From an uncultured Actinomycetes bacterium (lineage in GTDB: Bacteria > Actinomycetota > Thermoleophilia > RBG-16-64-13), in contig CAVQME010000001.1 of the NCBI GenBank assembly GCA_963713545.1, forward strand, positions 587,346 to 651,345: 64,000 nt of DNA. The letters run 5' to 3'. The number at the start of each line of letters is the position of its first letter. The stretch's first letter is position 1. The notes under the pieces were generated by a model. The model did no database searches. It saw nothing but the letters and a program-made list of their open reading frames with translations, and had not been told where the DNA came from. The position numbers and the translations under genes are program-made. Positions 251 through 23,748 of the stretch are shown here, in pieces.

Positions 251-526
251 CTACGTGAGGCGGAAGCGCACACCATACCCTCCCTGGGGGTAGTGCCAGT
301 CGAGAGCTTCACGGTCGCATAGGAGCAGGCAGGTCCCGCATTCGAGACAGGCCTCATACGCGAACTCCACCCGGGCCCGTTCCTCGCTCCAGGTATAGCA
401 GCGAGCCGGACAGGCAAACGTGCAGGCCCGATGCGTGCAACTCTGACACACGTCCGCGTTCAGCCGGATGTGCGCCTCGGGGTGGATCCGGTAGCTCACC
501 AGATCAAACAGTTCGTCCACTACCAA
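251..526 (-). CDS. fixX: Ferredoxin-like protein FixX
   Basis: 91 aa with a Cys-rich 4Fe-4S ferredoxin-like pattern (CQSCTHRACTFACPARC ... CLECGTCLLLC). It overlaps the end of fixC by 7 nt. Confidence 0.8.
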   Translation of the reverse strand: MVVDELFDLVSYRIHPEAHIRLNADVCQSCTHRACTFACPARCYTWSEERARVEFAYEACLECGTCLLLCDREALDWHYPQGGYGVRFRLT

Positions 527-1989
527 AGGAACGCCCTCCCTCCTTGGAACAGATCAGCCAGGAGCTGCCGCATCGTCAGCTCGTCCTTCACTGCCCGACG
601 GCCCAGACGGCCGATCTTCTCTTTGGGGTCGCCGTCAGAACGATAGAGGTCCTCCATGAGCGCGCTCACCACCCGGGGATAGACCGTGAACAGACGGTCC
701 TCGTGTAGGAAATCGATGGCCCGGCCGAAGGTGGCAAGATCGCGCAGGACGAAGCTCTTCTTGAGCTCCTCCCCGTATCCTCCGAGGCGGGACGCGGAGA
801 CGTCGCCGTCAGCCAGCGCTGCTGCCCCGACCTGAGCGGCCACCAGACCCGAGGTCATGGCCAAGTTCATCCCTTCCTGGGTCAGGCCGTTCGTGTAGCA
901 GAAGCCGGCGGCGTCGCCCGCGACCAGGAGCCCCCCCGTAGATAGTTGCGGGATCATGCGCAACCCCGCTTCCGGGAGCAGATGGGCCGAGTATTCGATC
1001 AAGCGGGCCCCCCGAAGCAACGAAGCCACCGGGCTCGAGGCCACAAAGCGCTCCAGCAGTTCGTAGGGCGGGATACCCCGGGTCTTCAGAGAGTCGAGGT
1101 GCATCACCAGACCGACGGAGAGGGTCTCGGTCTGGGTGTAGATGAAGCCCCCGCCGCGGATGCCCTCCGTGCAGCCAAGGAACTCCTGTGTGGCCCCTTC
1201 CCGGCCGACCAGGCCGAAGCGCTCATTGATCTCTTCCTCGGTCAGGCGGTAGAGAGCCCGGACCCCAAGCGCTACCTGTTCGGGTTTGAAGCCCCCGTGC
1301 AGCCCGGCCTCCTGGGCGAGGAACGAAAGCGTCCCATCGCAGGCGATTACCAGAGGAGCCTCGACCATATCGTCGAGCCCCGCCACCCACACTCCCTGCA
1401 CGGTTCCGGCGCGCTTCACGAGGCCTTCCGCCCGGCAGCCGGTGAGCAGGGTCACGCCCTCTTCGACAGCGCGCTCCGCGTACCAGCGATCAAAATGGGG
1501 GCGGAACAGGGTGAAGCCGGTCAGGGTACGGTCGGAGGTCGAGCCGGCGCCCGCCGCGGGTCGGTCGGAATCGGAGTTGGCCTGGAAGACAAGAGAGGTG
1601 GAGGAGCTCTCGCCCATTAGTGAGAGCACCCGCTTGTTGACGGCCCGCTCCCAGGGCGCCCGCTCCCAGAACCCTGGCACCAGCTCCTCCGGGACCGGAC
1701 AGTAGGCCATCATCCCACCAAACATGTTCTTGGCCCCGGGGTACTCACCCCGCTCGAGGAGAAGGACCTTAGCCCCCTTCTGCGCTAGGCCCAGGGCCGC
1801 GCTGGTGCCGGCCGGGCCGGCCCCGACCACGATGGCGTCGAAGCCGCTGGGGATGGAGGCAGCGGATACAGCCGCTCCAGGAGCCGGGGCGCCGCGGGCA
1901 GGGGCGCCGCGAACCGTGGCGCCGCCGACCGTCGCCTCAGCGCCGGCGGCCACGCTGCTAGCGGGGCTCTTCGGGCCCGACGGGGGCAT
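520..1989 (-). CDS. fixC: ETF-quinone oxidoreductase FixC (FAD-dependent)
   Basis: FAD-binding GxGxxG (IVVGAGPAGTSAALGLAQKGAKVLLLERG) and full-length similarity to the FixC/ETF-QO family. The ~55-aa Ala/Gly-rich N-terminal extension suggests the true start is an internal GTG near 1953. Confidence 0.8.
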   Translation of the reverse strand: MPPSGPKSPASSVAAGAEATVGGATVRGAPARGAPAPGAAVSAASIPSGFDAIVVGAGPAGTSAALGLAQKGAKVLLLERGEYPGAKNMFGGMMAYCPVPEELVPGFWERAPWERAVNKRVLSLMGESSSTSLVFQANSDSDRPAAGAGSTSDRTLTGFTLFRPHFDRWYAERAVEEGVTLLTGCRAEGLVKRAGTVQGVWVAGLDDMVEAPLVIACDGTLSFLAQEAGLHGGFKPEQVALGVRALYRLTEEEINERFGLVGREGATQEFLGCTEGIRGGGFIYTQTETLSVGLVMHLDSLKTRGIPPYELLERFVASSPVASLLRGARLIEYSAHLLPEAGLRMIPQLSTGGLLVAGDAAGFCYTNGLTQEGMNLAMTSGLVAAQVGAAALADGDVSASRLGGYGEELKKSFVLRDLATFGRAIDFLHEDRLFTVYPRVVSALMEDLYRSDGDPKEKIGRLGRRAVKDELTMRQLLADLFQGGRAFLW

Positions 1990-3019
1990 CCCGCCACTCC
2001 TTGATCTTCGAAACGAGCGCCGGCAATACCGCCTCCAGGTCGGCTACATAGCCGACATCGGAGAACTGGAAGATGGGAGCCCGCGCGTCTCGGTTGATGG
2101 AGAGAACCCGGTCGGCCTTCTGCACCCCGGCCATGTGGTGAGGCGAGCCCGAGATACCGAGGGCGAGGTACAGCTCGGGAGTGACCGTCTTGCCAGTCTG
2201 GCCGATGAGCCGCTCTTTGGGGAGACGGCCATCGTCGACCACGGGCCGGGTCGCCCCCACCGAGCCCGCGAGGAGGTCAGCGAGTTCCCGCGCGGCGGCC
2301 AGAAGGTCGTCGCTCGCGCTGCCCGAGCCGGCGGCCACGATGCGTTTGGCATGGGCCAGGTCTACGGTCCGCGGGTCCGGTGGGATGGTCTCGAGATGAC
2401 GAACGCGCGGGTGCTGATCTGGCGCCCCGGATGCGTCCTGCGCCGGGCCCTCGATCTCCAGGACTTCCAGAATAGGCAGGCCGTCTGGGAAAGAGTCCGA
2501 CTCATCCATTCCCGTGAGGTCGAGAGTCGCCACCGGAATGAAGCCGGCCTGGGGTTCGATCTCCTGCTCGAGCCAGCCGCCGTAGACCGGCTTCACAAAC
2601 ACGAGGGAACCTCCTCGCACCTGCAGGTCGCTGCAACTAACCACCGCCCCGGAGCCCAGCCGGTGCGCCAGCAGGGGCGCGAGCTCGCGGCAGACATCGG
2701 TGTCGGCCATCACCACGGCCACCGGCTTCGCGTGCTCCACGAAGGCCGCCAGAGCCGTCGCGACCACCTCCGGGTCGATCTCGACCCCGGCTCGCCATGT
2801 GACGAATCGGGGCGTCGCGCCCAGCTCGCGAGCCAGACGCACGCCCTCGGCGAGAATGACCGTGCCTCCCGTTACCGTGGCCTCTCCAGCGCCGCGTTCC
2901 TTCTCCCGGGGCTCGACCACCACCAGGAGGGCGCGCGCGCCGCCCACGTCGGCGCCGCTCGTCGAGGCAGCCGCGGCGGCCGCCGGCGTGGGCGTCACCC
3001 TATCCGCCGCCCCGCTCAC
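1958..3019 (-). CDS. etfA: Electron transfer flavoprotein alpha subunit EtfA/FixB
   Basis: C-terminal FAD-binding signature LYLALGISGSPHHMAGVQKADRVLSIN. The GTG start overlaps the TGA of the upstream oxidoreductase (GTGA). Confidence 0.85.
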   Translation of the reverse strand: MSGAADRVTPTPAAAAAASTSGADVGGARALLVVVEPREKERGAGEATVTGGTVILAEGVRLARELGATPRFVTWRAGVEIDPEVVATALAAFVEHAKPVAVVMADTDVCRELAPLLAHRLGSGAVVSCSDLQVRGGSLVFVKPVYGGWLEQEIEPQAGFIPVATLDLTGMDESDSFPDGLPILEVLEIEGPAQDASGAPDQHPRVRHLETIPPDPRTVDLAHAKRIVAAGSGSASDDLLAAARELADLLAGSVGATRPVVDDGRLPKERLIGQTGKTVTPELYLALGISGSPHHMAGVQKADRVLSINRDARAPIFQFSDVGYVADLEAVLPALVSKIKEWRDAPVGPEEPR

Positions 3020-4965
3020 ACGCGCTTCCCGGCCATATAGCCTTCGTGGATGGCCATATCCACCTTGCGGGGGGCCACGCAGTCGCCGATGCGGTAGAGC
3101 TCGGACACCTTGCCCTTAAGGGCGAAGTAGAGGTCCTCGCAGGCGTCGTTCCCCATGGCGGTGACGATGCTGTCGTATCCGGAGAAGACGTCCCAGACAT
3201 TGGAATAGACGTTGAAGCCGTGCACCTCCAGACCCTTGATCTCCATGACGGCGAAGTCGGGCGTGAAGGTCACCCCCTTCTGGAGCAACCGCTGTCGGGT
3301 GAGGTACAGATCCTGGGACGGCCCCAGGTCGGATCCCACGAAGAGGCTCGAGGTGACCACGTGCACGGTCTTGCCCAATTCGGCCAGGAACTCGGCGGTG
3401 GCTGTTGCCTGGTGGTGACCGTCATAATCGATGAGAAGCACCCTTTCGCCCAACTCCGCCTCGCCCCTTAGGACCTGCCACACGTTGAAGACCCCCGGGC
3501 CGTCGGCGCCCGCCACCGGGCTCGTTTTGGGGCGCGATCCCGTGGCCACGATCACCGCGTCCGGCTCCCGCTCGAAGATGAACTCCGGCGTGACCTCCAC
3601 GCCCAGTTCCACCGGTACCCCCAGATGGGCGAGTTGGTTGCGCTCGTTGCGGACGATCACCCCGAACTCATCTCGGCCTGCGCCCTTCGCCGCCAGGAGC
3701 ACCTGGCCGCCCAGCTCCCCGGCCTGCTCATAGAGGGTCGCTTGGTGCCCCCGCAGAGTGGCGATCTTGGCCGCCCACATGCCTGCCGGACCACCGCCCA
3801 CGACCATGACCCGCTTTTTCCTCAGAGCCGGGCGCAGATGGCGCTCACCTTCAATGTCCTCGCAACCCACCGACGGGTTCTGCACGCAGCCGATCGTCTT
3901 GTTGAGACCCACCCGGCCGTAGCAGTTCTGGTTGCAGGCGATGCAGTAGCGGATCTCTTCGGTTCGGCCCTCCCGGGCTTTGCGGGCAAAATCGGGGTCG
4001 GCGATCTGCCCGCGGACCACCCCGATCATGTCGGCCTGCCCCTCGGCGAGTACCCGTTCCGCGAGGGCCGGGTCGTTGATGCGCCCGGTGGCGAAGACCG
4101 GGAGTGTCGCCACCTCCTTGATGCCGGCGGCCAGCGGGACCGCATAGCCCAGCGGCATGTGCATGGGACCCCCGACCAGATAGAGGTTGTAGAAGGTGGC
4201 GAGGGTCAAGTTGAAGTAGTCCAGGTGCCCGGTCGCTTGAAGGCGCTGGGCGATCTGTTTCGCGTCCTCAAGGGTGAGGCCCCCGGGGATGAGCTCGTCG
4301 GCGCACAGGCGCACTCCCAGGGTATAGTCGGCCCCCACCGCTTCTCTCACCGCGGCGATCACTTCGAGAGCGAAGCGAAGCCGATTATCGAACTCCCCCC
4401 CGTATTCGTCGCCGCGGTAGTTGGTGAGCGGCGACATGAACTGGCGGACCAGCGAGCTGTGCCCGAACTGTAGCTCCACTCCGTCGAAGCCACCCTCGCG
4501 CACGTGGGTCGCCGACCGGGCGAAGTACTCCACCACTTCCCGGATGTCTTCGATCTCCATGGCCTTGGGGGTCTCCCGGTAGAGCACGTCCGGCACGGGG
4601 GACGGTGCCCACACCGGCAGACGAGAGAGGCTACCGCTGCACTGCTGCCCGTTGTGGTTGAGCTGGGCGAAGATGCGCGTCTCGAACGCGTGCACCGCCT
4701 GCGTGAGCCGCTTGTAGCCGGGGATGACCTCCGGGTGGAACGCCTCGATCAGGTGCTCGTAGGCCCGGTCGGTGGGATGGACCGACTGCTCCTCGGTGAT
4801 GATCAGGCCCGCCCCGCCCCGAGCGCGGGCGGCCAGGTAGCCCGTCAGCCGGTCGGTGGGCAGCCCGTCGTCCGCCAGGTTGGTGAGATGGGCGGAGAAG
4901 GAGATGCGGTTGGGCACCGTCACCCGCCCGATCTCCAGGGGGCTGAAGAGGTGGGGGAACTGCAT
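3016..4965 (-). CDS. FadH/OYE-family Fe-S flavoprotein (2,4-dienoyl-CoA reductase / trimethylamine dehydrogenase-like), mycofactocin-system-associated oxidoreductase
   Basis: 649 aa. It has an N-terminal OYE TIM-barrel FMN domain, a CxxCxxC...C [4Fe-4S] motif (CIACNQNCYGRVGLNKTIGCVQNPSVGC) and a C-terminal FAD/NAD(P) domain (VMVVGGGPAGMWAA). The gene immediately follows mftC with an RBS inside the mftC 3' end. Confidence 0.8.
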   Translation of the reverse strand: MQFPHLFSPLEIGRVTVPNRISFSAHLTNLADDGLPTDRLTGYLAARARGGAGLIITEEQSVHPTDRAYEHLIEAFHPEVIPGYKRLTQAVHAFETRIFAQLNHNGQQCSGSLSRLPVWAPSPVPDVLYRETPKAMEIEDIREVVEYFARSATHVREGGFDGVELQFGHSSLVRQFMSPLTNYRGDEYGGEFDNRLRFALEVIAAVREAVGADYTLGVRLCADELIPGGLTLEDAKQIAQRLQATGHLDYFNLTLATFYNLYLVGGPMHMPLGYAVPLAAGIKEVATLPVFATGRINDPALAERVLAEGQADMIGVVRGQIADPDFARKAREGRTEEIRYCIACNQNCYGRVGLNKTIGCVQNPSVGCEDIEGERHLRPALRKKRVMVVGGGPAGMWAAKIATLRGHQATLYEQAGELGGQVLLAAKGAGRDEFGVIVRNERNQLAHLGVPVELGVEVTPEFIFEREPDAVIVATGSRPKTSPVAGADGPGVFNVWQVLRGEAELGERVLLIDYDGHHQATATAEFLAELGKTVHVVTSSLFVGSDLGPSQDLYLTRQRLLQKGVTFTPDFAVMEIKGLEVHGFNVYSNVWDVFSGYDSIVTAMGNDACEDLYFALKGKVSELYRIGDCVAPRKVDMAIHEGYMAGKRV

Positions 4966-4969
4966 GGAC

Positions 4970-6070
4970 TTAAGCTACCTCCTTCGCGGGCACCAGCGTG
5001 GCGGCCGTCGCCGCGCGCAGGCACTCCGGGTCGGGCTGGTCCAGGGACTGGGTGAGGAAGTACGCTACCGCCGGGCAGCCGCCGTGGCAGACGGAGAAGC
5101 GGTCGCAGATGCGGCACGAGTCGACCTCGAGCTCCCGAAACCGCTGGAGCACCGGCGACGATTGGAAGATCTTCTCGAAAGGCTCGAGCGTCACGTTGCC
5201 GGCGAGAAACGCGGGATGGCAGAGGAAGGCACAGGGATAGACGCCGCCATCCGGCGCAACGGCGCAGGTCATCTTGGCCGCGCCGCACATGTCCAACCCC
5301 AGAGTCCGGCGGCTCTGCGGAGTGAGTGAGAAGAACGAGTCGCCGGTCAGGATCTCCGGGTGGTCTCCGAGGAAGCTGGAAAGCGCAAGAAGCTGGTCCC
5401 GGGTCAAGCGGTAGTCCTCCCAGCTCGCGCAGCCGGCTCCGGAGGGGCGGAAACGCGAGAGCCGGGTTTTGGCCCCGTAGCGGCGGGCGAGCCGATCGAA
5501 GTCGGCGATCTCGCCGGCGTTCGGGCGGGTGACCACCATGTTCAGGCTGAAGTCGGGGTAGTCCCGTTCGGCGAGAAGCTCGACGCCGGCGAGGATGCGG
5601 GCGAAGGTCCCGGCCCCCCGGATGCCGTCGTTGGTCTCGGCGCAGGCGCCGTCCAGGCTCACCTGCAGGTAGACGGGCGCCATCCTCAGCAGCTCATCGA
5701 CGAGAGAGTCGGCGAGCACCGTCCCGTTGGTGCTGACGCAGGTGGTGATGCCCTGGGAGTGGCAGTAGGCGAGGATGTCGAGAAAGTCGTCCCGCAGGAA
5801 AGGCTCCCCGCCTCCGAAGTTGATCTGGAAGATCTCCATGCGGGCCAGCTCGTCGATGAGCGCCCGGCATTGCTGAAGGTCGAGCGCACCCCCGCCCCGG
5901 CCGAGAGGGTCGTCGCTCCGCAACCCGTTCCCGCCCGGCGTTTCGCCGCCAAGTCCAGCGCGCACTCCGGCAGAGAGGCAGTGGGTGCAGCGGAGGTTAC
6001 ACGCCTGGGTGATCTCCCACGTGACGTTGACCGGCGCGCGAAGGGGGGTGCTACTCAGCCTGTGTGGCAA
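4970..6070 (-). CDS. mftC: Mycofactocin radical SAM maturase MftC (radical SAM + SPASM)
   Basis: CxxxCxxC radical SAM motif (TQACNLRCTHC) and a Cys-rich C-terminal SPASM domain. It directly follows mftB with overlap. Confidence 0.85.
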   Translation of the reverse strand: MPHRLSSTPLRAPVNVTWEITQACNLRCTHCLSAGVRAGLGGETPGGNGLRSDDPLGRGGGALDLQQCRALIDELARMEIFQINFGGGEPFLRDDFLDILAYCHSQGITTCVSTNGTVLADSLVDELLRMAPVYLQVSLDGACAETNDGIRGAGTFARILAGVELLAERDYPDFSLNMVVTRPNAGEIADFDRLARRYGAKTRLSRFRPSGAGCASWEDYRLTRDQLLALSSFLGDHPEILTGDSFFSLTPQSRRTLGLDMCGAAKMTCAVAPDGGVYPCAFLCHPAFLAGNVTLEPFEKIFQSSPVLQRFRELEVDSCRICDRFSVCHGGCPAVAYFLTQSLDQPDPECLRAATAATLVPAKEVA

Positions 6071-6338
6071 CGATCAGGCCCCTATCGACAAGGTTCTCAA
6101 GCAGTCGCCTTACTGCCGCACGCCGGCCACCCCGGAGCGCCCCTACGTGGAGAACACGGTCCGGTCCGGCGAAAGGCGGGGGCGTTAGAGCGTCGCCGGA
6201 GCGCACGAACGTCAGCTTGGTGGAGCGGGTGTCGTAGAAGAGCAGCCCGAAGCTTTCGCGTCGCACCCGGACCCAGTCCGGTACGAGATACGTGGTCGCT
6301 GGCAGCAGATCGAACCCGGCGTCGTCAGTAGACGCCAC
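6051..6338 (-). CDS. mftB: Mycofactocin precursor-binding chaperone MftB (PqqD/RRE family)
   Basis: 95 aa with the RRESFGLL motif, corresponding to the MftB 'RPExFGAL' signature. It overlaps the end of mftA and the start of mftC. Confidence 0.8.
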   Translation of the reverse strand: MASTDDAGFDLLPATTYLVPDWVRVRRESFGLLFYDTRSTKLTFVRSGDALTPPPFAGPDRVLHVGALRGGRRAAVRRLLENLVDRGLIVATQAE

Positions 6339-6450
6339 AGATCCCGTCCACGGCCAGGTCTTCGACCTCGATCTCTTCGAGGACCAGCGGCTCCTCGGGA
6401 GGGGCCGGGCATGGGGTGGCGGCTAGGACATCATCGCTTCTGGCATACAT
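6325..6450 (-). CDS. mftA: Mycofactocin precursor peptide MftA
   Basis: MYARSDDVLAATPCPAPPEEPLVLEEIEVEDLAVDGICGVY ends in the hallmark ...DG(M/I)CGVY-COOH. A GGAGGG RBS lies upstream. This is an internal start within the ORF-track entry 6325..6513. Confidence 0.8.
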   Translation of the reverse strand: MYARSDDVLAATPCPAPPEEPLVLEEIEVEDLAVDGICGVY

Positions 6451-6484: not shown

Positions 6485-7594
6485 TCAGTCCCATTCACAG
6501 ACCCAGCGCCCACCGAGTTGACGCCGCTCCATCTTCTCGGCGATTTCGTTGATATCCTCGAGCTTGAACTTGCCCGCGATTATCTTGTCCAGTTTCATCT
6601 CCCCGGTCATGGCCAAATCGATCAGCTTGGGTATGTCGTCTTTGGTGGAGATAGAACCGTAGAGCCCTCCGATCATCGCCTTCTGCTGCAGAGCCATGAA
6701 GGTCAGGGGCATGGGGGCCACCTGATCCTGGGGCATGATCCCGACGACCATGAGGCGACCGGCCATCCCAAGGGCCCACCAGGCCTGCACCAGAGCACCT
6801 GGGTCCCCGCTGCACTCGAAGATGAAATTCGCCCCCCCGCCGGTCAACTCTTGGACGATGGGCACGGGATCCTCGGTCGAGTTGCAGATGAAGTGGGTAG
6901 CCCCCAACTCGAGGGCGATCTCACGCCGGGACTCCTCTAGGTCCACGGCGATGAGAGGATTGGCTTGGCGCATCTTCGCCGCCCGGAGCGTGTTCTGGCC
7001 AACGCCCCCCAGCCCCCACACGGCTACCTTGTCCCCGGGCTGGACGTTGGCCAGCTTGGTCACCGTCCCCCAGCCCGTGGGAACGCAGCAGCTCATCAAG
7101 GCGCCCCATTCGAGCGGCACGTCCTTGCGCAGTGGGACGAGGGAATCTTCAGGGACCACGGTGTAGTCCGAGAAGCCGGACACGAAGTTGCCGTGCAGGA
7201 CCGGGTTGCCCTTGGCATCCCTCATGCGGGTGGTGCCGTCGAGCATGGTGCCCCCTACGAAGTACTGGAAGTTGCCTGAGCATACGTTGCCCAGACCACG
7301 ACGGCACTCGGGGCAATCACCGCAGGGGCACATCCAGGCGCTCGCGACATGATCGCCCACCTTGACCCGGGTCACGCCCTCGCCGATGGCCTGGACCACC
7401 CCGGCGCACTCGTGACCGGCCACCATCGGCAGAGCCATATAGATCCGGCCCTTGAGATTGCTGAGGTCGCTGTGGCAGTAGCCCGTGTACTGGTACTTGA
7501 CGAGAGCTTCGCCGGCCTTCGGCGGATCGAGTTCCAGTTCTTCGATGCTGTAACCCTTGTTGACTTCGCGCAGGATAGCGGCCCTGATCTTCAC
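6485..7594 (-). CDS. Zn-dependent alcohol dehydrogenase, NDMA-dependent / mycofactocin-associated (Rxyl_3153-type)
   Basis: 369-aa MDR-family ADH with GHECAG, GDHV, catalytic Zn Cys/His and the GLGGVG NAD motif. It is encoded immediately 5' of mftA on the same strand. Confidence 0.8.
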   Translation of the reverse strand: MKIRAAILREVNKGYSIEELELDPPKAGEALVKYQYTGYCHSDLSNLKGRIYMALPMVAGHECAGVVQAIGEGVTRVKVGDHVASAWMCPCGDCPECRRGLGNVCSGNFQYFVGGTMLDGTTRMRDAKGNPVLHGNFVSGFSDYTVVPEDSLVPLRKDVPLEWGALMSCCVPTGWGTVTKLANVQPGDKVAVWGLGGVGQNTLRAAKMRQANPLIAVDLEESRREIALELGATHFICNSTEDPVPIVQELTGGGANFIFECSGDPGALVQAWWALGMAGRLMVVGIMPQDQVAPMPLTFMALQQKAMIGGLYGSISTKDDIPKLIDLAMTGEMKLDKIIAGKFKLEDINEIAEKMERRQLGGRWVCEWD

Positions 7595-7822: not shown

Positions 7823-8194
7823 TCACCGGCGGCGGCGCCTTAGGCGCCGCGCCTCTCCTACCCGGAGGGTCAACCCTTCAGAATCCATGTGTTCCAGGAG
7901 CGCCTGCGCATACCGGCGGGAGGTGCCAAGCAGATCCCGGGCTTCAGCCAGGGTCAGCTGATCCGCCTCCTCCATGGCCGTTACCAGCCGGCCGATCAGA
8001 TCGTCCAGGCGCTCCGGTGGATAGTAGAGGTCTTCGCCCACCTTGACCAACCGGCCCTGACGCACCAAGGCGTCGACGATCCTCTTCGCGTCGCGCACAA
8101 CGAGTCCCGCCGCGGCGGCCGCCACGGTCACGCTCGGAGTCTCGGCGGCGCGTTCGGCGCTATCACCGTCGTGAACTGCGCCAGCAGGCTCTCG
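7823..8194 (-). CDS. selB: SelB C-terminal winged-helix fragment (frame-shifted continuation of selB)
   Basis: Only the last ~110 aa of ORF 7823..9064 look protein-like (GLVVRDAKRIVDALVRQGRLVKVGEDLYY...TSRRYAQALLEHMDSEGLTLRVGEARRL). The Arg-rich N-terminal part of that ORF is out-of-frame junk. Confidence 0.55.
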   Translation of the reverse strand, partial: REPAGAVHDGDSAERAAETPSVTVAAAAAGLVVRDAKRIVDALVRQGRLVKVGEDLYYPPERLDDLIGRLVTAMEEADQLTLAEARDLLGTSRRYAQALLEHMDSEGLTLRVGEARRLRRRRR

Positions 8195-9876
8195 ATCGCT
8201 CCCGCCTGCACATCGTCGGGCATTGCGGCGGCCCCAGCCCAGCGGAAGCCGTGCTCCGTTCGGACAACCTCCCCAGCCGTCTGCAGTCTCTCGAGGGCCG
8301 CGTCCAGGGCGAGCCATTCCTTGCCGCCGGACAGCTCTCTCCGCAACTCGCCCAAGGTCAGATAAGGATTCAGCGCATCGGTGGCAGCCCGCTCGCGCAG
8401 AGCCGTGAGGGCGACGTCGGTCAAGGCCAATAGCGAAGGCCCGTGGAATAAGCGAAGGTTGGCCGCCGTCGGTTCCGCCGCAGGTTCCGCCGCCGCCCCA
8501 GCCACGGTCTGGGCCCCGGGTGACCGTGCCGCGCCGTGCTGGTGGCGACAACCGCGGCCGCGGCCGTCCGCCAGCAGGCCGTTTACGGCCGCGCCGATCT
8601 CCGTTCGGCCGAATCGCCACAGATAGGGACTGTCCTCCAGTCTCCGGCGCGTGAGGGCCGATGGGAACGATTCTTCGAGCAACAAGGCGGCGATGAGGTC
8701 CGGTGGTCCTTCCTCCAGCAAGGCCAGGCGGTCGTGCCATCGAGGTCCGGTGCCGTGCTTGTGCGGCGCGGGATCGATCACTCGGCCCCCGCCAACGGTG
8801 GCGACAGGAGTCACCGAGCGCACGATGAACTGGTCTCCGGGATAAACAAGAGCGCGCTCCTCGAACCGCACCTGCGCATAGCAGGAGTCCCCGGGCTCCA
8901 GAGAATCGCGGTCGGCAAGCACGAATTTGGCAAGGATCTCCGCCGTGCCGTGGTCCACCCGCGCGCGTGAGACGCGGGGCACGGGGCCGGGTGCCTCCGG
9001 CAGCAGAGTCAACCGCACATCGGCCAGGTAGGTCGGCTCGATGACAGGGTCCTTCACCACCCATTGCCCGCGATCGAGCTCATCACGGTCGACCCCGGTC
9101 AGACTGAGCGCAACCCGCTGCCCACCGGCAGCCGCTGCCACCTCACGATCGTGTACCTGGACGCTCCTCACCCGCACCTCCCGCAGCTCGGCCGGACCCC
9201 GGGCGGTCCGGGGAGGGAGGATCGCGACCGTGTCTTCGGCGCTGAGACTCCCAGACCACAGCGTGCCGGTGACGACCGTGCCGATGCCCTTGAGGGAGAA
9301 GACCCGGTCTATGGGCATACGGGTGGCTGGGTATGCGGGGCGCGGCGGTACCGCCGCGCCCAGACGGTCGAGAGTAGCCACCAGTTCAGGCAACCCGTCG
9401 CCGGTCACGCCGCTCACCAGCACTATGGGAGCATCACCGTAGGGGGTAGCGGCGAGTAGGTCCTCCACGTCGGCCCGAGCCAGTTCGGCCAGGTCGGGAT
9501 CGACCATGTCGATCTTGGTGAGGGCGACCATCCCAGAGGGGATACCGAGCAGTTCGATGATGTGCAAGTGCTCACGGGTCTGCGGCATGACCCCGTCGTC
9601 GGCCGCCACCACCAGCATGAACAGGTCGATGCCCGTGGCGCCGGCCACCATGGTCTTGACGAAGCGCTCGTGCCCCGGTACGTCTACCACGCTCAGATGC
9701 CGGCCGCTCGGCAGCACCAGTTCGGCGAAGCCTAATTCGATGCTGATGCCCCGGGTCTTCTCCTCCTTGAGCCGATCGGTATCCCGGCCGGTCAAGGCTT
9801 TGACGAGGGTGGTCTTGCCGTGATCGATGTGCCCGGCGGTACCCAGGGTCAGAGGGACGCACGGCTCCCCCCGCAT
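8128..9876 (-). CDS. selB: Selenocysteine-specific elongation factor SelB (frameshifted; C-terminal WH domains continue in another frame to 7823)
   Basis: The G-domain [11 protein letters not shown]...DVPGHERF...TKID is followed by EF-Tu-like domains II/III and winged-helix repeats. The last ~110 aa, including the SECIS-binding WH4 (LTLAEARDLLGTSRRYAQALLEHMDSEGLTLRVGEARRL), are found in the frame of ORF 7823..9064. Confidence 0.8.
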
Positions 9877-9882
9877 CCGCAG

Positions 9883-11448
9883 TCACAGTACCGCCCCGGG
9901 CAACGATCGGCCGGCGTCACCAACCGCCATACCCACCAGCCGCTCGATGGCCCAGACGACGCTCTCGGCCGCAGGCTCGACCTCGCTCTCGGCCAGAGTC
10001 AGCACGTCCAGATGGAGACTGTCTTGGGACACGCGGGCCACCACGGGGATGGGGGCCCGGCGCAGGAGCGCTTCGAGCGCCGAGACCGTGGGGACTACCG
10101 CCCGTGTAGCTCCCGTATCCGCGGCCGCCGCCGACCCTCCGGGACCTCCGGCCACTCCCGCCGGCCGGGCAGATCCCCCTTGTGCTCCGCTCTGGACCGG
10201 TTGTTCCGGGAACCTGATGCGGACGGCATGCGAAGGCAGTTCCACCAGAGGCATCGAGCCGCCGCCGGCCCGAGCGCTCGACTCTTCCACTTCGAGAATG
10301 AAGCCGTCGCCGCAACGCCGCTCGATGGCCGCCTGCAGAGCCGCGGCCAGCGCGCCCGTCTCCGCCGCGGTCCGGCTGAGGTAGCGCAGTGTCGGGATCT
10401 CCTCGCGGGCCCTCTTGGGATCCTGATAGAGGCGAAGGGTCGCCTCCAAAGCCGCCAGCGTCATCTTATCCAGCCGCAGGGCGCGCGCCACCGGGTGTTT
10501 CCGCAGTCGGTCGATCACGTCGGCGCTGCCGAGCAGGATCCCGGCCTGGGGTCCCCCCAACAGCTTGTCCCCGCTGAAACAGACGACGTCCACGCCCGTC
10601 CGCAGCGACGCCGCCACCGATGGCTCTCCAGAGAACGCGTCGAGCTCGTAGAGCGCTCCACTGCCCAGGTCGTCGGCGACCGGCACTCCCCGGCGGCGGC
10701 CTAGATCCACCAATTCGGCCAGATCGGCTTCCTCGACGAAGCCAAGGATCCGATAGTTCGAGGTATGCACCCGCAGCAGCAAGGCGGTATCAGCCGTGAT
10801 GGCGGCTTCGTAGTCCGATATCCGGGTGCGATTGGTGGTCCCCACTTCCACGAGGCGGACGCTTCCGGCCCGCATGATCTCGGGCAGCCGGAAGGACCCG
10901 CCGATCTCGACCAATTGTCCCCTCGAGACGAGGACCTCCCGCCCCGAGGCCAGCGCCATCAGGAGGAGCAGCATCGCCCCTGCGTTGTTGTTGACCGCGA
11001 AGGCGGCTTCCGCCCCGGTCAGCCGAGTGAGCAGGGTCTCGACATGGATTTCCCGCCGGCCGCGTGTGCCTTCCTCGAGATCGTACTCCAGGTTGCTGTA
11101 CGAACGGGCCACTTCGACCACGCGCTCCACCGCGGCTTCGGCCAGGCAAGAACGGCCCAGGTTGGTGTGGACCACCACCCCGCTCAGGTCCAAGACCCGC
11201 CGCAGGCCGGGCTCAGCCCACGACTCCAGGATGACGGTCATCTCCGCCACGATCTTTTCCGGCGCGCCAGCGCCGCTCGTCGTCTCGCCCGCGATGATCG
11301 CCTGCCGGGCCGCTTCCACCGCCGCCCGAGCCGCCTCCACCACCTGTAGCCGCGGGTAGCGCTCCAGGAGCGCGAGCGCCGCCGGCCGGCTCGTCAGTTC
11401 CTCTACCGACGGGAGATCGCGCAGTGCCTTCTGCCTCGTGTCGTCCAT
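9883..11448 (-). CDS. selA: L-seryl-tRNA(Sec) selenium transferase SelA
   Basis: PLP-dependent SelA family with conserved blocks NLEYDLEEGTRGRR, VNNNAGAMLL and FSGDKLLGGPQAG. The likely start is MDDTRQKAL at 11448. The gene ends 7 nt before selB. Confidence 0.8.
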   Translation of the reverse strand: MDDTRQKALRDLPSVEELTSRPAALALLERYPRLQVVEAARAAVEAARQAIIAGETTSGAGAPEKIVAEMTVILESWAEPGLRRVLDLSGVVVHTNLGRSCLAEAAVERVVEVARSYSNLEYDLEEGTRGRREIHVETLLTRLTGAEAAFAVNNNAGAMLLLLMALASGREVLVSRGQLVEIGGSFRLPEIMRAGSVRLVEVGTTNRTRISDYEAAITADTALLLRVHTSNYRILGFVEEADLAELVDLGRRRGVPVADDLGSGALYELDAFSGEPSVAASLRTGVDVVCFSGDKLLGGPQAGILLGSADVIDRLRKHPVARALRLDKMTLAALEATLRLYQDPKRAREEIPTLRYLSRTAAETGALAAALQAAIERRCGDGFILEVEESSARAGGGSMPLVELPSHAVRIRFPEQPVQSGAQGGSARPAGVAGGPGGSAAAADTGATRAVVPTVSALEALLRRAPIPVVARVSQDSLHLDVLTLAESEVEPAAESVVWAIERLVGMAVGDAGRSLPGAVL

Positions 11449-11513
11449 CTCCGCCTCCTTCAAGACGCCGACGCCCGGTGAGGCCCCCTGGGTGCGTCCC
11501 TCGCTCCCCGCTC

Positions 11514-12536
11514 CTACTTCTCCCGTTCCAGGAAGAAGTCTGCCATCGACTCGAGGACATCGCGGGCAGGTGAGACGCGTAGACCGGCGAGACATTCCCG
11601 CGCCTCGCCGATGAGCGCCCGGGCTCGTGCCCGGGCGAAACCTATCGAGTCATACTTGTTCAGCAGCTCCAGCACCTCCGCGGCGTGGCCAAGGGTCTTG
11701 CCGTGCCCCAACCGCAGTATCTCGATCAGCCGTTCTCGGTCGGCCGGCTCGGCCACGGTGAGGCAATGGATCACCATGAGCGTCCGCTTGCTCTCGAGGA
11801 CGTCGGTGAGGTAGTCCTTGCCCATGGTGTCGACGTCGCCAAGGATGTTGAGAAGGTCGTCCTGTATCTGAAAAGCGATGGAGGAGCTCTTCCCAAAGCC
11901 TTCGAGCGCTTCTCTCTCGCTGTCCGTCGCCCCGCCGATGATCGCTCCCACCTTGACCGGAGCGATCCCGGAGTAGTAGCCGGTCTTGCCGAGCGCCATA
12001 CGCAGGTAATCGTCCAGAGTGAGCTCGTATACATCGTCCCGTACCCAGCCCACATCAAGGGCCTGACCCTCGACGGTGCGGGCGCTCATCTCGCCGATGA
12101 CGTCCAGGACAGCCAGCTTGGTGGCGTCGTCGAGCTGTGGATCGCGCACGACGATAGTGCACACCAGACCCAATGCATAGTCGCCGGCGTTGATGGCGAG
12201 GGGCACGCCGTGCAAGATATGCGCGCACTTCTGGCCGCGCCGCAGGAGACTCGCGTCCATGATGTCGTCGTGGATCAGAGCGGCCGCATGGAAGAACTCG
12301 ATCGCACACCCTGCGGATAGGGCCTTGCGCGGCTCGCCGCCCACCGCTTCGCACGCCACCATGGCCATCGCCGGTCGAGCCCGCTTGCCACCGCGGACTA
12401 TGAACTCGTCCAGGATGCCGTAGAGGTAGGTGTGAAGAGCACTGCCCTCGGGGACCCCGGCCAGGTAGGCGTGCAACCGCTCGTCGATAACGGGGGTGAC
12501 CGAGGTCAGATAGTCGATGAAGAGATCAACGCCCAT
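11514..12536 (-). CDS. Polyprenyl diphosphate synthase (geranylgeranyl/farnesyl diphosphate synthase family)
   Basis: First Asp-rich motif LIHDDIMD and second motif FQIQDDLLN in a trans-isoprenyl diphosphate synthase fold. The internal start MGVDLF is preferred. Confidence 0.8.
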   Translation of the reverse strand: MGVDLFIDYLTSVTPVIDERLHAYLAGVPEGSALHTYLYGILDEFIVRGGKRARPAMAMVACEAVGGEPRKALSAGCAIEFFHAAALIHDDIMDASLLRRGQKCAHILHGVPLAINAGDYALGLVCTIVVRDPQLDDATKLAVLDVIGEMSARTVEGQALDVGWVRDDVYELTLDDYLRMALGKTGYYSGIAPVKVGAIIGGATDSEREALEGFGKSSSIAFQIQDDLLNILGDVDTMGKDYLTDVLESKRTLMVIHCLTVAEPADRERLIEILRLGHGKTLGHAAEVLELLNKYDSIGFARARARALIGEARECLAGLRVSPARDVLESMADFFLEREK

Positions 12537-23639: not shown

Positions 23640-23712
23640 GGGGGTATAGCTCAGTTGGGAGAGCGTCGCGTTCGCATCGCGAAGGCCAGGGGTTCGAATC
23701 CCCTTACCTCCA
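23640..23712 (+). tRNA. tRNA-Ala (anticodon CGC)
   Basis: Cloverleaf GGGGGUA/UA/GCUCAGUUGGGAGAGC/G/UCGCG-UUCGCAU-CGCGA/AGGCC/AGGGG-UUCGAAU-CCCCU/UACCUCC/A. It has the G3:U70 alanine identity pair and the T-loop GTTCGAATC. CCA is not encoded. A TATAAAT -10-like box lies at 23614-23620. Confidence 0.85.
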
Positions 23713-23748
23713 CTCCTTCCCTCCCTTGTCGGCCGTCCTCATGAAGGG

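Follow-up and report, generated by a model that had tools for sequence, protein, structure and literature searches.

An iron-sulfur flavoprotein of the FadH/TMADH superfamily, encoded with its own ETF/FixCX genes in mycofactocin clusters, as a candidate substitute for MftD and/or MftG

A 64,000-nucleotide stretch of DNA from an uncultured Actinomycetes bacterium (GTDB lineage Actinomycetota; Thermoleophilia; RBG-16-64-13; assembly GCA_963713545.1, contig CAVQME010000001.1, positions 587,346 to 651,345), hereafter referred to as the window, carries a mycofactocin (mft) gene cluster. In this cluster an iron-sulfur flavoprotein gene of the Old Yellow Enzyme (OYE) type, here designated OYE2, lies between mftC and genes for an electron-transferring flavoprotein (ETF) and an ETF:quinone oxidoreductase (ETF-QO). 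Mycofactocin biology has been worked out almost wholly in mycobacteria, with their mftABCDEF and mftG genes. Related loci that were compared with the window are denoted below by the letter L and a number.

The mycofactocin operon of the window

The OYE2 open reading frame (ORF) starts with ATG and encodes a protein of 649 amino acids. Its placement between mftC and etfA, which an earlier note on this DNA had read from the sequence, was confirmed by profile matches of both neighbors (Table 1). The minus-strand run is headed by a Zn-dependent alcohol dehydrogenase gene that is related to the mycofactocin-coupled 'NDMA-dependent ADH' family TIGR03989, and about 31 of the 80 related loci have a homolog of this gene ahead of mftA. 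The C-terminal GVY core of the mftA product agrees with the IDGMCGVY signature reported previously (PMC11162802), and tblastn places the precursor gene upstream of mftB in most related loci. Counterparts of the small FixX-like protein are annotated as 4Fe-4S ferredoxin in Streptomyces and haloarchaeal clusters. The gene junctions from mftA to fixX measure −14, −20, +4, −4, −32 and −7 nt, and these spacings indicate a single translationally coupled operon. What lies beyond the left window edge was deduced from the 95%-identical locus L027, together with the 60-codon etfB stub.

Table 1. Genes of the mft-OYE2-etf run, listed from its first gene; coordinates are those of the window
Feature	Coordinates	Strand	Evidence and remarks
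Zn-dependent alcohol dehydrogenase	6485..7594	minus	Pfam ADH_N, ADH_zinc_N; TIGR03989 323 bits, below cutoff 440
mftA precursor peptide	6325..6450	minus	41 aa if ATG at 6450; C-terminus ...IEVEDLAVDGICGVY (DGICGVY)
mftB peptide chaperone, 95 aa	6051..6338	minus	Position and conservation beside mftC; 14-nt overlap with mftA, 20-nt overlap with mftC
mftC radical SAM/SPASM maturase	4970..6070	minus	TIGR03962 333 bits (cutoff 265); Pfam Radical_SAM, SPASM
OYE2	3016..4965	minus	TIGR03997, Pfam, alignments; mftC ends 4 nt upstream
EtfA/FixB-like ETF alpha	1958..3019	minus	PF00766 ETF_alpha 98 bits, ETF 49 bits; start overlaps OYE2 stop by 4 nt
FixC/EtfC-like FAD-dependent ETF:quinone oxidoreductase	520..1989	minus	FixC subfamily 308 bits, below cutoff 610; ETFQO_UQ-bd 28.3 (cutoff 27.7)
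FixX/EtfX-like ferredoxin, 91 aa	251..526	minus	ORF translation; two Cys-rich cluster motifs, CQSCTHRACTFACP and CLECGTCLLLC
etfB (fixA-like ETF beta), first 60 codons	2..181	minus	Cut by window edge; tblastn with L027 EtfB, 97% identity over aa 1-60

OYE2 is a member of a named family

In an NCBIfam scan, OYE2 matches TIGR03997 with 953 bits (E 8e-287; curated cutoff 793.15), a score that excludes a chance match, and amino acids 5-648 align end to end with positions 1-644 of the 645-position model. TIGR03997 is the model named 'mycofactocin system FadH/OYE family oxidoreductase 2', and TIGR03996 is that of the paralogous 'oxidoreductase 1' (OYE1). Both marks of TIGR03997 membership are present, namely a full-length score above the cutoff and a gene that adjoins an mftA/B/C cluster. 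The runner-up models BaiCD (425 bits), TIGR03996 (384 bits) and bilirubin reductase (355 bits) remain far under their own cutoffs. Close homologs of OYE2 already carry the TIGR03997 name in JGI and NCBI data. OYE2 is an ordinary member of a family already named and does not define a new one; the family has been described as of 'unknown function' (PMC11162802).

At the domain level, Pfam Oxidored_FMN (PF00724) covers amino acids 6-336 (212.8 bits, E 1e-62, model positions 2-341 of 342), and Pyr_redox_2 (PF07992), a pyridine-nucleotide-disulfide-type fold, covers amino acids 385-613. The three-domain FMN/[4Fe-4S]/dinucleotide architecture of FadH and trimethylamine dehydrogenase (TMADH) that the earlier note had ascribed to the protein is recovered by Pfam, TIGR03997, PDB alignments and Foldseek alike.

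Cofactor sites and active-site residues

Residues were assessed in alignments to solved relatives and in an alignment of 89 OYE2-type and 8 OYE1-type orthologs. OYE2 comprises an FMN barrel (aa 6-336), an FAD-or-ADP fold (aa 385-500 and 616-649) and a third domain (aa ~500-615). The cluster motif CIACNQNCYGRVGLNKTIGCVQNPSVGC is located at aa 341-368, where C341, C344, C348 and C360 align with the [4Fe-4S] ligands of the E. coli 2,4-dienoyl-CoA reductase FadH, of TMADH and of the 2-naphthoyl-CoA reductase NCR. All four are retained in the window protein, as an intact [4Fe-4S] motif requires; the fifth cysteine of the motif as first described, C368, is not conserved in the family.

The second cluster ligand, Cys344 in OYE2, is Asp in 28 of the 89 orthologs (CxxD, e.g. 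YCIADNQGCY). Carriers of this variant are interspersed among CxxC relatives and belong to Syntrophorhabdales, Dehalococcoidia, Acidobacteriota, Goldiibacteriota, some of the Gaiellales and a portion of the Geobacterales (the CxxD loci include L017-L019, L021-L026, L029, L034-L038, L040, L044-L046, L048, L049, L051, L054, L055, L069 and L080). The substitution suggests an Asp-ligated or convertible cluster.

Where the earlier note had placed a C-terminal FAD/NAD(P) domain, a single intact dinucleotide fold is found. Its three glycines (G390-x-G392-x-x-G395) are present in 89/89 orthologs, E/D413 is conserved, and G627-D628 is kept in 87-88 of the 89. This fold is predicted to bind FAD or ADP, between which the sequence does not discriminate. 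At the position of the FadH NADPH motif (GCGGIG) stands IDYDGHH, with D513 in 88, G516 in 87 and H517 in 75 of the 89 orthologs; this stretch resembles NADTYF of TMADH and DDDHYY of histamine dehydrogenase. Domain 3 is thus devoid of an NAD(P)H motif. When this domain was searched alone, histamine dehydrogenase was the best match (E 0.005), followed by NCR and TMADH, and FadH was not detected in that search.

The catalytic residues of the known relatives are largely replaced. The proton-donor Tyr of FadH, NCR and OYE corresponds to Ser171 in OYE2 (Ser in 86/89 orthologs), so that of the FadH catalytic pair Tyr166/His252 neither is kept, Ser171 and Phe standing in their place. Cys30 of TMADH, which carries the 6-S-cysteinyl-FMN, is Leu27 (Leu in 82/89). 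The TMADH triad Tyr169-His172-Asp267 reads Gln, His169 and Val, the histidine being the sole residue kept, and the aromatic bowl of Tyr60, Trp264 and Trp355 has become Glu, Leu and Val. The ETF-docking residues Tyr442 and Val344 of TMADH are likewise not conserved, being Val and Tyr in OYE2.

Among solved structures, NCR ranks first (6QKG, 318 bits, full length), ahead of FadH (1PS9, 287 bits), histamine dehydrogenase (207 bits) and TMADH (199 bits); the alignment with FadH ends at aa 532. An AlphaFold2 model, built on an alignment of 36 sequences 75-91% identical, reached a pLDDT of 60 and a pTM of 0.51. Foldseek searches with this model reproduced the sequence-based ranking at TM ~0.40 (NCR, E 3e-38; FadH, E 2e-35), OYE structures being matched too. 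In view of its modest quality, the model may be taken to support the fold family and nothing beyond. The comparison with TMADH and FadH proposed earlier hence upholds the shared fold and places OYE2 nearer to NCR, FadH and BaiCD than to TMADH. Overall, OYE2 is a mosaic with a reductase-like barrel and FAD domain, an amine-dehydrogenase-like third domain and an active site unlike that of every characterized member.

NADPH is the redox partner of FadH, ETF is that of TMADH and histamine dehydrogenase, and NCR depends on an unknown low-potential donor (PMC6502838). The statement that ETF is the natural acceptor of both TMADH and FadH is therefore right for TMADH and wrong for FadH.

The module is conserved across lineages

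A scan of one genome per species, seeded with OYE2, yielded 250 relatives, and the best 80 of the 250 (64-95% identity) were analyzed. These 80 stem from Thermoleophilia/Gaiellales, Syntrophorhabdales, Dehalococcoidia, Geobacterales/Desulfuromonadales, Acidobacteriota and Goldiibacteriota, and span at least five phyla. The order mftA-mftB-mftC-OYE2-etfA-fixC-fixX is preserved almost throughout. Of the 80 loci, 78 have etfA, 78 have fixC and about 71-73 have fixX, and absent module genes coincide with contig ends in the cases checked. An EtfB-like gene and then mftF follow fixX in 66-68 loci, the MftF proteins scoring 335-358 bits against TIGR03965 (cutoff 280). The full conserved order is mftABC-OYE2-etfA-fixC-fixX-etfB-mftF, and the redox module sits between mftC and mftF, which is the location of mftD and mftE in canonical clusters. 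The module also occurs on Streptomyces and haloarchaeal plasmids; in the haloarchaea it adjoins the mft genes and is encoded on the other strand.

On the Haloterrigena and Halolamina plasmids (L085:1-3948 and L087:1-5564), 4-7 tandem genes annotated as 'mycofactocin-coupled SDR family oxidoreductase' (SDR, short-chain dehydrogenase/reductase) and an AAA ATPase/VWA pair adjoin the module. In the closest relative (L027:10001-14327, 95% identity), OYE2, etfA and fixC each appear as two ORFs; these splits are probably frameshift errors of long-read assembly and not true pseudogenes.

Three cluster subtypes can be distinguished: OYE2 only (the window, haloarchaea), OYE1 together with OYE2 (Streptomyces and several metagenome loci) and OYE1 only. 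In the OYE1-only subtype (L098, L102, L103, L136, L138, L140, L142, L152 and L165) the gene directly follows mftC, MftD is missing and neither fixC nor fixX lies in the vicinity, and OYE1 may use a different electron partner. In the tandem clusters L095:11043-13016, L096:7445-9412, L148:10987-13140 and L153:11166-13172, the first OYE has lost most or all of its Fe-S cysteines (e.g. PCTLSNQRSQ, PCLLANQDNI, PAILSNQDNL). It is clearly of OYE1 type in L148 and L153, and the neighboring OYE2 retains its cysteines. Tandem OYEs may form a heteromer in which OYE2 alone contacts ETF.

The ETF/FixCX proteins and a possibly divergent EtfB

A functional link between OYE2 and ETF is strongly supported by gene context, since OYE2 shares a 4-nt overlap with etfA, etfA-fixC-fixX-etfB lies downstream in essentially all 80 loci and OYE2 has no NAD(P)H site; ETF is accordingly the predicted acceptor. 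The association of mycofactocin with ETF is already encoded in the NCBIfam names of TIGR03997, TIGR04503 and NF038209, and no paper that treats mycofactocin together with ETF, EtfA or FixC was found in the searchable literature.

The best PDB matches of the window EtfA are 5OL2, 7KOE and 4KPU. Against NF038209 (mft_etfA) it scores 141 bits (cutoff 240), and full-length EtfB homologs score 72-82 bits against TIGR04503 (mft_etfB; cutoff 200). Because both subunits fall below these cutoffs, window-type EtfA and EtfB go unlabelled as mycofactocin-associated by annotation pipelines outside actinomycetes; NF038209 and TIGR04503 are actinobacterial models.

EtfB sequences were further classified by their 'zipper' signature, for which DGDTAQ, binding a second FAD, marks bifurcating ETFs (group 2; criterion from PMC8958531) and the AMP-site motif DDDxNQ marks canonical ones (group 1). 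Neither motif is found in any of the 71 module-associated EtfB sequences. At the zipper position stand DRGDDP (Geobacterales loci), INGSGQ (L027), DTGNGQ or DRGTGT, and nothing recognizable in haloarchaea; examples of such EtfB genes downstream of fixX are L027:14669-15628, L034:14554-15468, L086:13466-14311 and L085:12408-13265. The module EtfB looks like a third, divergent ETF type, in which the second nucleotide site may be altered or lost. A bifurcating FixABCX-type complex was down-weighted on the failed signature test.

MftD and OYE-type genes exclude each other

References for MftD, MftE, MftG, MftR and MftM were taken from annotated plasmid clusters and used in tblastn. None of the five was found in the window or in the 80 OYE2-seeded loci (1.39 Mb), and MftF, included as a control, matched in 67 loci. 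Among 12 PLSDB plasmids with mftC, 8 are of the OYE2 type, 4 of the MftD type and none of both. The former (six Streptomyces, Haloterrigena and Halolamina) have no MftD-level match; the latter (Tsukamurella, M. chubuense, Streptomyces NBC_00080 and T. roseum) have no OYE or ETF gene near mftC. The contrast also exists within a genus: Streptomyces NBC_00080 carries mftR, mftG / mftABCDEF, and NBC_00334 carries mftABC-OYE1-OYE2-etfA-fixC-fixX-etfB-SDR-mftF-mftE.

In order to avoid seeding bias, a metagenome sample of 80 loci was drawn with canonical-type MftC leading the alignment used as query. MftD alone was found in 18 of these loci, an OYE-type gene alone in 21, both in none and neither in 41, many of which are short contigs. 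The exclusion gives a Fisher p of 0.002 (2e-4 if restricted to loci whose sequence continues for 3 kb or more beyond mftC), values that are indicative only, as the lineages are not independent. Across the three samples, MftD and OYE-type genes co-occur in 0/80, 0/12 and 0/80 clusters.

Both gene types share one slot, just after mftC. ETF and FixC genes occur only with OYE2 and in 0/18 MftD-type metagenome loci. No mftG was seen adjoining OYE-type clusters in the locus neighborhoods inspected.

Genes flanking the operon

The selA/selB genes (7823-9876 and 9883-11595, both on the minus strand) are located directly upstream of the mft operon, an adjacency also present in L010, L014, L024, L027 and L070. 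The window selB is split by a frameshift, which could be an assembly error or a pseudogene: the alignment of a full-length SelB runs in frame −2 as far as ~8173 and in frame −1 it starts at ~8104. No tRNA-Sec was found within the 64-kb window, the sole tRNA being tRNA-Ala at 23640-23713. The rest of the window (14-64 kb) contains housekeeping genes and no further mft gene, as judged by a Pfam scan and tblastn with the MftD/E/G/R/M references. Two ORFs of 1138 aa were considered as a duplication and rejected, being unrelated.

Discussion

MftG couples the oxidation of mycofactocinol to respiration, and about 25% of mftC genomes are without it, its replacement having been left open (PMC11778925). 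Haloterrigena, Halolamina, S. yangpuensis, S. erythraea, Geotalea and Geobacter are tabulated in that study as mftC-positive and mftG-negative, and S. yangpuensis is the source of one of the OYE2 plasmids described above. In addition, 17 Saccharopolyspora clusters match TIGR03997 and have no mftD, with no function assigned to the match (BGCFlow; PMC11162802), and MMFT-2, MMFT-2H2 and MMFT-3 were detected in S. erythraea by retention time and MS2 (Ellerhorst et al.; PMC9679996). Taken together, these three reports show that an organism with TIGR03997 in the cluster, no cluster mftD and no genomic mftG both makes the canonical keto/hydroxy core and cycles it between its redox states.

Tentatively, and with confidence somewhat short of even, we propose that OYE2 is an ETF-linked oxidative dehydrogenase which acts on the mycofactocin core, feeds quinone and substitutes for MftD and/or MftG. 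OYE2 would be the substrate-oxidizing head of a dedicated five-protein electron chain, in which C3 of the pyrrolidinone core is oxidized at the barrel FMN. Single electrons would leave through the [4Fe-4S] cluster, possibly by way of a middle-domain FAD, to the co-encoded EtfAB and would travel on via FixX/FixC to menaquinone, with no use of NAD(P)H. The proposal is supported by the match of FixC to the ETF-QO ubiquinone-binding domain and by the potentials of the PMFT/PMFTH2 couple (−255 mV) and menaquinone (−74 mV; PMC11778925). An MftD-like step would convert AHDP by oxidative deamination from amine through imine to keto-amide (premycofactocin), and an MftG-like step would convert hydroxy-amide to keto-amide (mycofactocinol to mycofactocinone), coupled to respiration. 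Because both are oxidations at the same carbon, one enzyme could carry out both, as it would do in OYE2-only clusters such as that of the window, where OYE2 is the sole candidate for either role.

That one Fe-S flavoenzyme with a private ETF/ETF-QO chain replaces both MftD and MftG is possible if doubtful. The same doubt attaches to its corollary, a second, respiratory-chain-coupled route that would create the keto-amide redox centre as well as re-oxidize the cofactor. Its users, named here with equal reserve, might be Geobacterales, Syntrophorhabdales, Dehalococcoidia, Thermoleophilia, haloarchaea and some actinomycetes (Streptomyces; Saccharopolyspora according to PMC11162802). We dropped the argument that MftD needs O2 and that anaerobes hence need OYE2, since aerobic Streptomyces and haloarchaea have the module as well, which speaks against it. 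As to which step is replaced, the exclusion of MftD and the shared gene slot favor a biosynthetic, MftD-like role, and recycling is favored by the lack of MftG, by dehydrogenase genes next to the module and by the outlay on a complete ETF/ETF-QO chain. The earlier note had suggested a candidate mycofactocin:ETF oxidoreductase; the data are compatible with that role and point to replacement of MftD at least as strongly.

Several observations weigh against this proposal. For MftD, absence is established on plasmids, across the 64 kb of the window and elsewhere in neighborhoods of about 10 kb; for MftG it is likewise local. Clusters with neither MftD nor an OYE within 10 kb exist (mftC-mftE-(SDR)-mftF among housekeeping genes; L124, L127, L137, L139, L156), so MftD can be unlinked from mftC; a third enzyme was sought in these clusters and no candidate was found. 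T. roseum possesses MftD, with no MftG and no OYE near the cluster, and the module is therefore not the sole answer to the absence of MftG. In OYE1-only clusters an OYE follows mftC with no FixCX nearby, so that in clusters containing OYE1 this enzyme may be the one with the MftD-like role. MftE, too, is missing near clusters of the window type. OYE2, moreover, has greater sequence similarity to C=C reductases and desaturases (BaiCD, NCR, FadH) than to amine dehydrogenases; as the catalytic residues of both groups are absent, homology does not predict its chemistry. Finally, a four-gene electron chain seems lavish for a biosynthetic step that takes place once per molecule, which would disfavor a purely MftD-like role.

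OYE2 may instead serve recycling only, an alternative that we regard as unlikely yet worth serious attention. OYE2 would then be a mycofactocinol:ETF oxidoreductase, an analogue of MftG that passes electrons via EtfAB-FixCX to quinone and re-oxidizes the cofactor after its reduction by neighboring alcohol dehydrogenases, the MftD step being left to an unlinked or unrecognized enzyme. A dedicated ETF and ETF-QO chain fits high-flux catabolism, a mycofactocin-type alcohol dehydrogenase heads the operon, the haloarchaeal module stands beside tandem mycofactocin-coupled SDR genes, OYE2-type organisms are mftG-negative (PMC11778925) and the thermodynamics are favorable. This leaves unaccounted for, however, both the mutual exclusion of MftD and OYE with their common slot after mftC and the keto core in Saccharopolyspora, whose clusters are without mftD. 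Additionally, MftD clusters with neither MftG nor OYE exist, so that loss of MftG does not by itself require the module.

A reductive function, with the complex of FixABCX/EtfABCX type feeding OYE2 from NADH or quinol, possibly by bifurcation, and OYE2 reducing mycofactocinone or an activated C=C bond, seems improbable to us. Its appeal lies in the nearest solved relatives, which are reductases, and in NCR, which likewise cannot use NAD(P)H and requires an external one-electron donor. EtfA also aligns over its full length with bifurcating and EtfABCX ETFs (5OL2, 7KOE, 4KPU) and only partially with canonical ones, and the known FixABCX/EtfABCX complexes bifurcate. The zipper motifs are nonetheless absent from the module EtfB sequences, Ser171 occupies the proton-donor position throughout nearly all orthologs and mycofactocin, at −255 mV, requires no low-potential donor; a reductase, moreover, could not make up for the oxidative enzymes MftD and MftG.

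Very improbable is a substrate independent of mycofactocin (an amine, enoate or acyl-CoA) that OYE2-ETF-FixCX would handle while sharing only regulation or transfer history with mft: the superfamily covers a very wide range, homologs of 36-40% identity unrelated to mycofactocin are encoded on about 500 plasmid records, and the active-site residues of OYE2 match no characterized member, but overlapping reading frames tie the module into the stretch between mftC and mftF, and it holds this place in different bacterial phyla, recurs beside mft in haloarchaea, belongs to a curated equivalog model defined by mft context and is mutually exclusive with MftD.

The OYE2-EtfAB-FixCX module, read as an oxidative substitute for MftD and/or MftG, offers a concrete and testable candidate for two gaps, the replacement of MftG and the keto core of Saccharopolyspora in the absence of a cluster mftD. 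If true, it would define an entry of the cofactor into the quinone pool in anaerobes and archaea, genome-mining rules for mycofactocin that require mftD would need revision, and the FadH/TMADH superfamily would gain a new reaction alongside a third, divergent kind of ETF. If not confirmed, OYE2 stays a routine member of a named family.

Comparison with known systems

With respect to TIGR03997, there is no family-level difference for OYE2, and the context is the same as in Streptomyces plasmids, where PGAP annotates members adjoining mftC and then 'mycofactocin-associated' ETF subunits. The cluster type of the window differs from that of Streptomyces in being without OYE1 and MftE, both of which are present in the latter.

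NCR (6QKG) and FadH (1PS9) share with OYE2 the FMN barrel, the CxxCxxxC...C cluster and the FAD-type fold, and NCR, like OYE2, has no NAD(P)H motif; Trp459 of NCR corresponds to Phe434 in OYE2. They differ in that no genes of CoA-ester metabolism are found near OYE2 and in that the predicted direction of OYE2 is oxidative. TMADH and histamine dehydrogenase, on the other hand, resemble OYE2 in their three-domain architecture and in a domain 3 that has a similar acidic/aromatic motif in place of an NAD(P)H site, and they combine an ETF partner with oxidative C-N chemistry of the kind that deamination of AHDP requires; their overall similarity to OYE2 is lower (199-207 bits).

FixABCX/EtfABCX complexes consist of the same four gene families as the module, and T. 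maritima EtfABCX (7KOE) is among the nearest solved ETFs. The module departs from them in its gene order, etfA-fixC-fixX-etfB, in an EtfB that carries neither zipper motif and in always being paired with an extra Fe-S flavoenzyme.

MftD (TIGR03966) and MftG (TIGR03970), lastly, are the proposed functional equivalents of OYE2 and have no homology to it. MftD, the premycofactocin synthase, is an FMN enzyme of the alpha-hydroxy-acid-oxidase type and MftG is a GMC-type FAD enzyme; OYE2 comes with an ETF/ETF-QO chain of its own.

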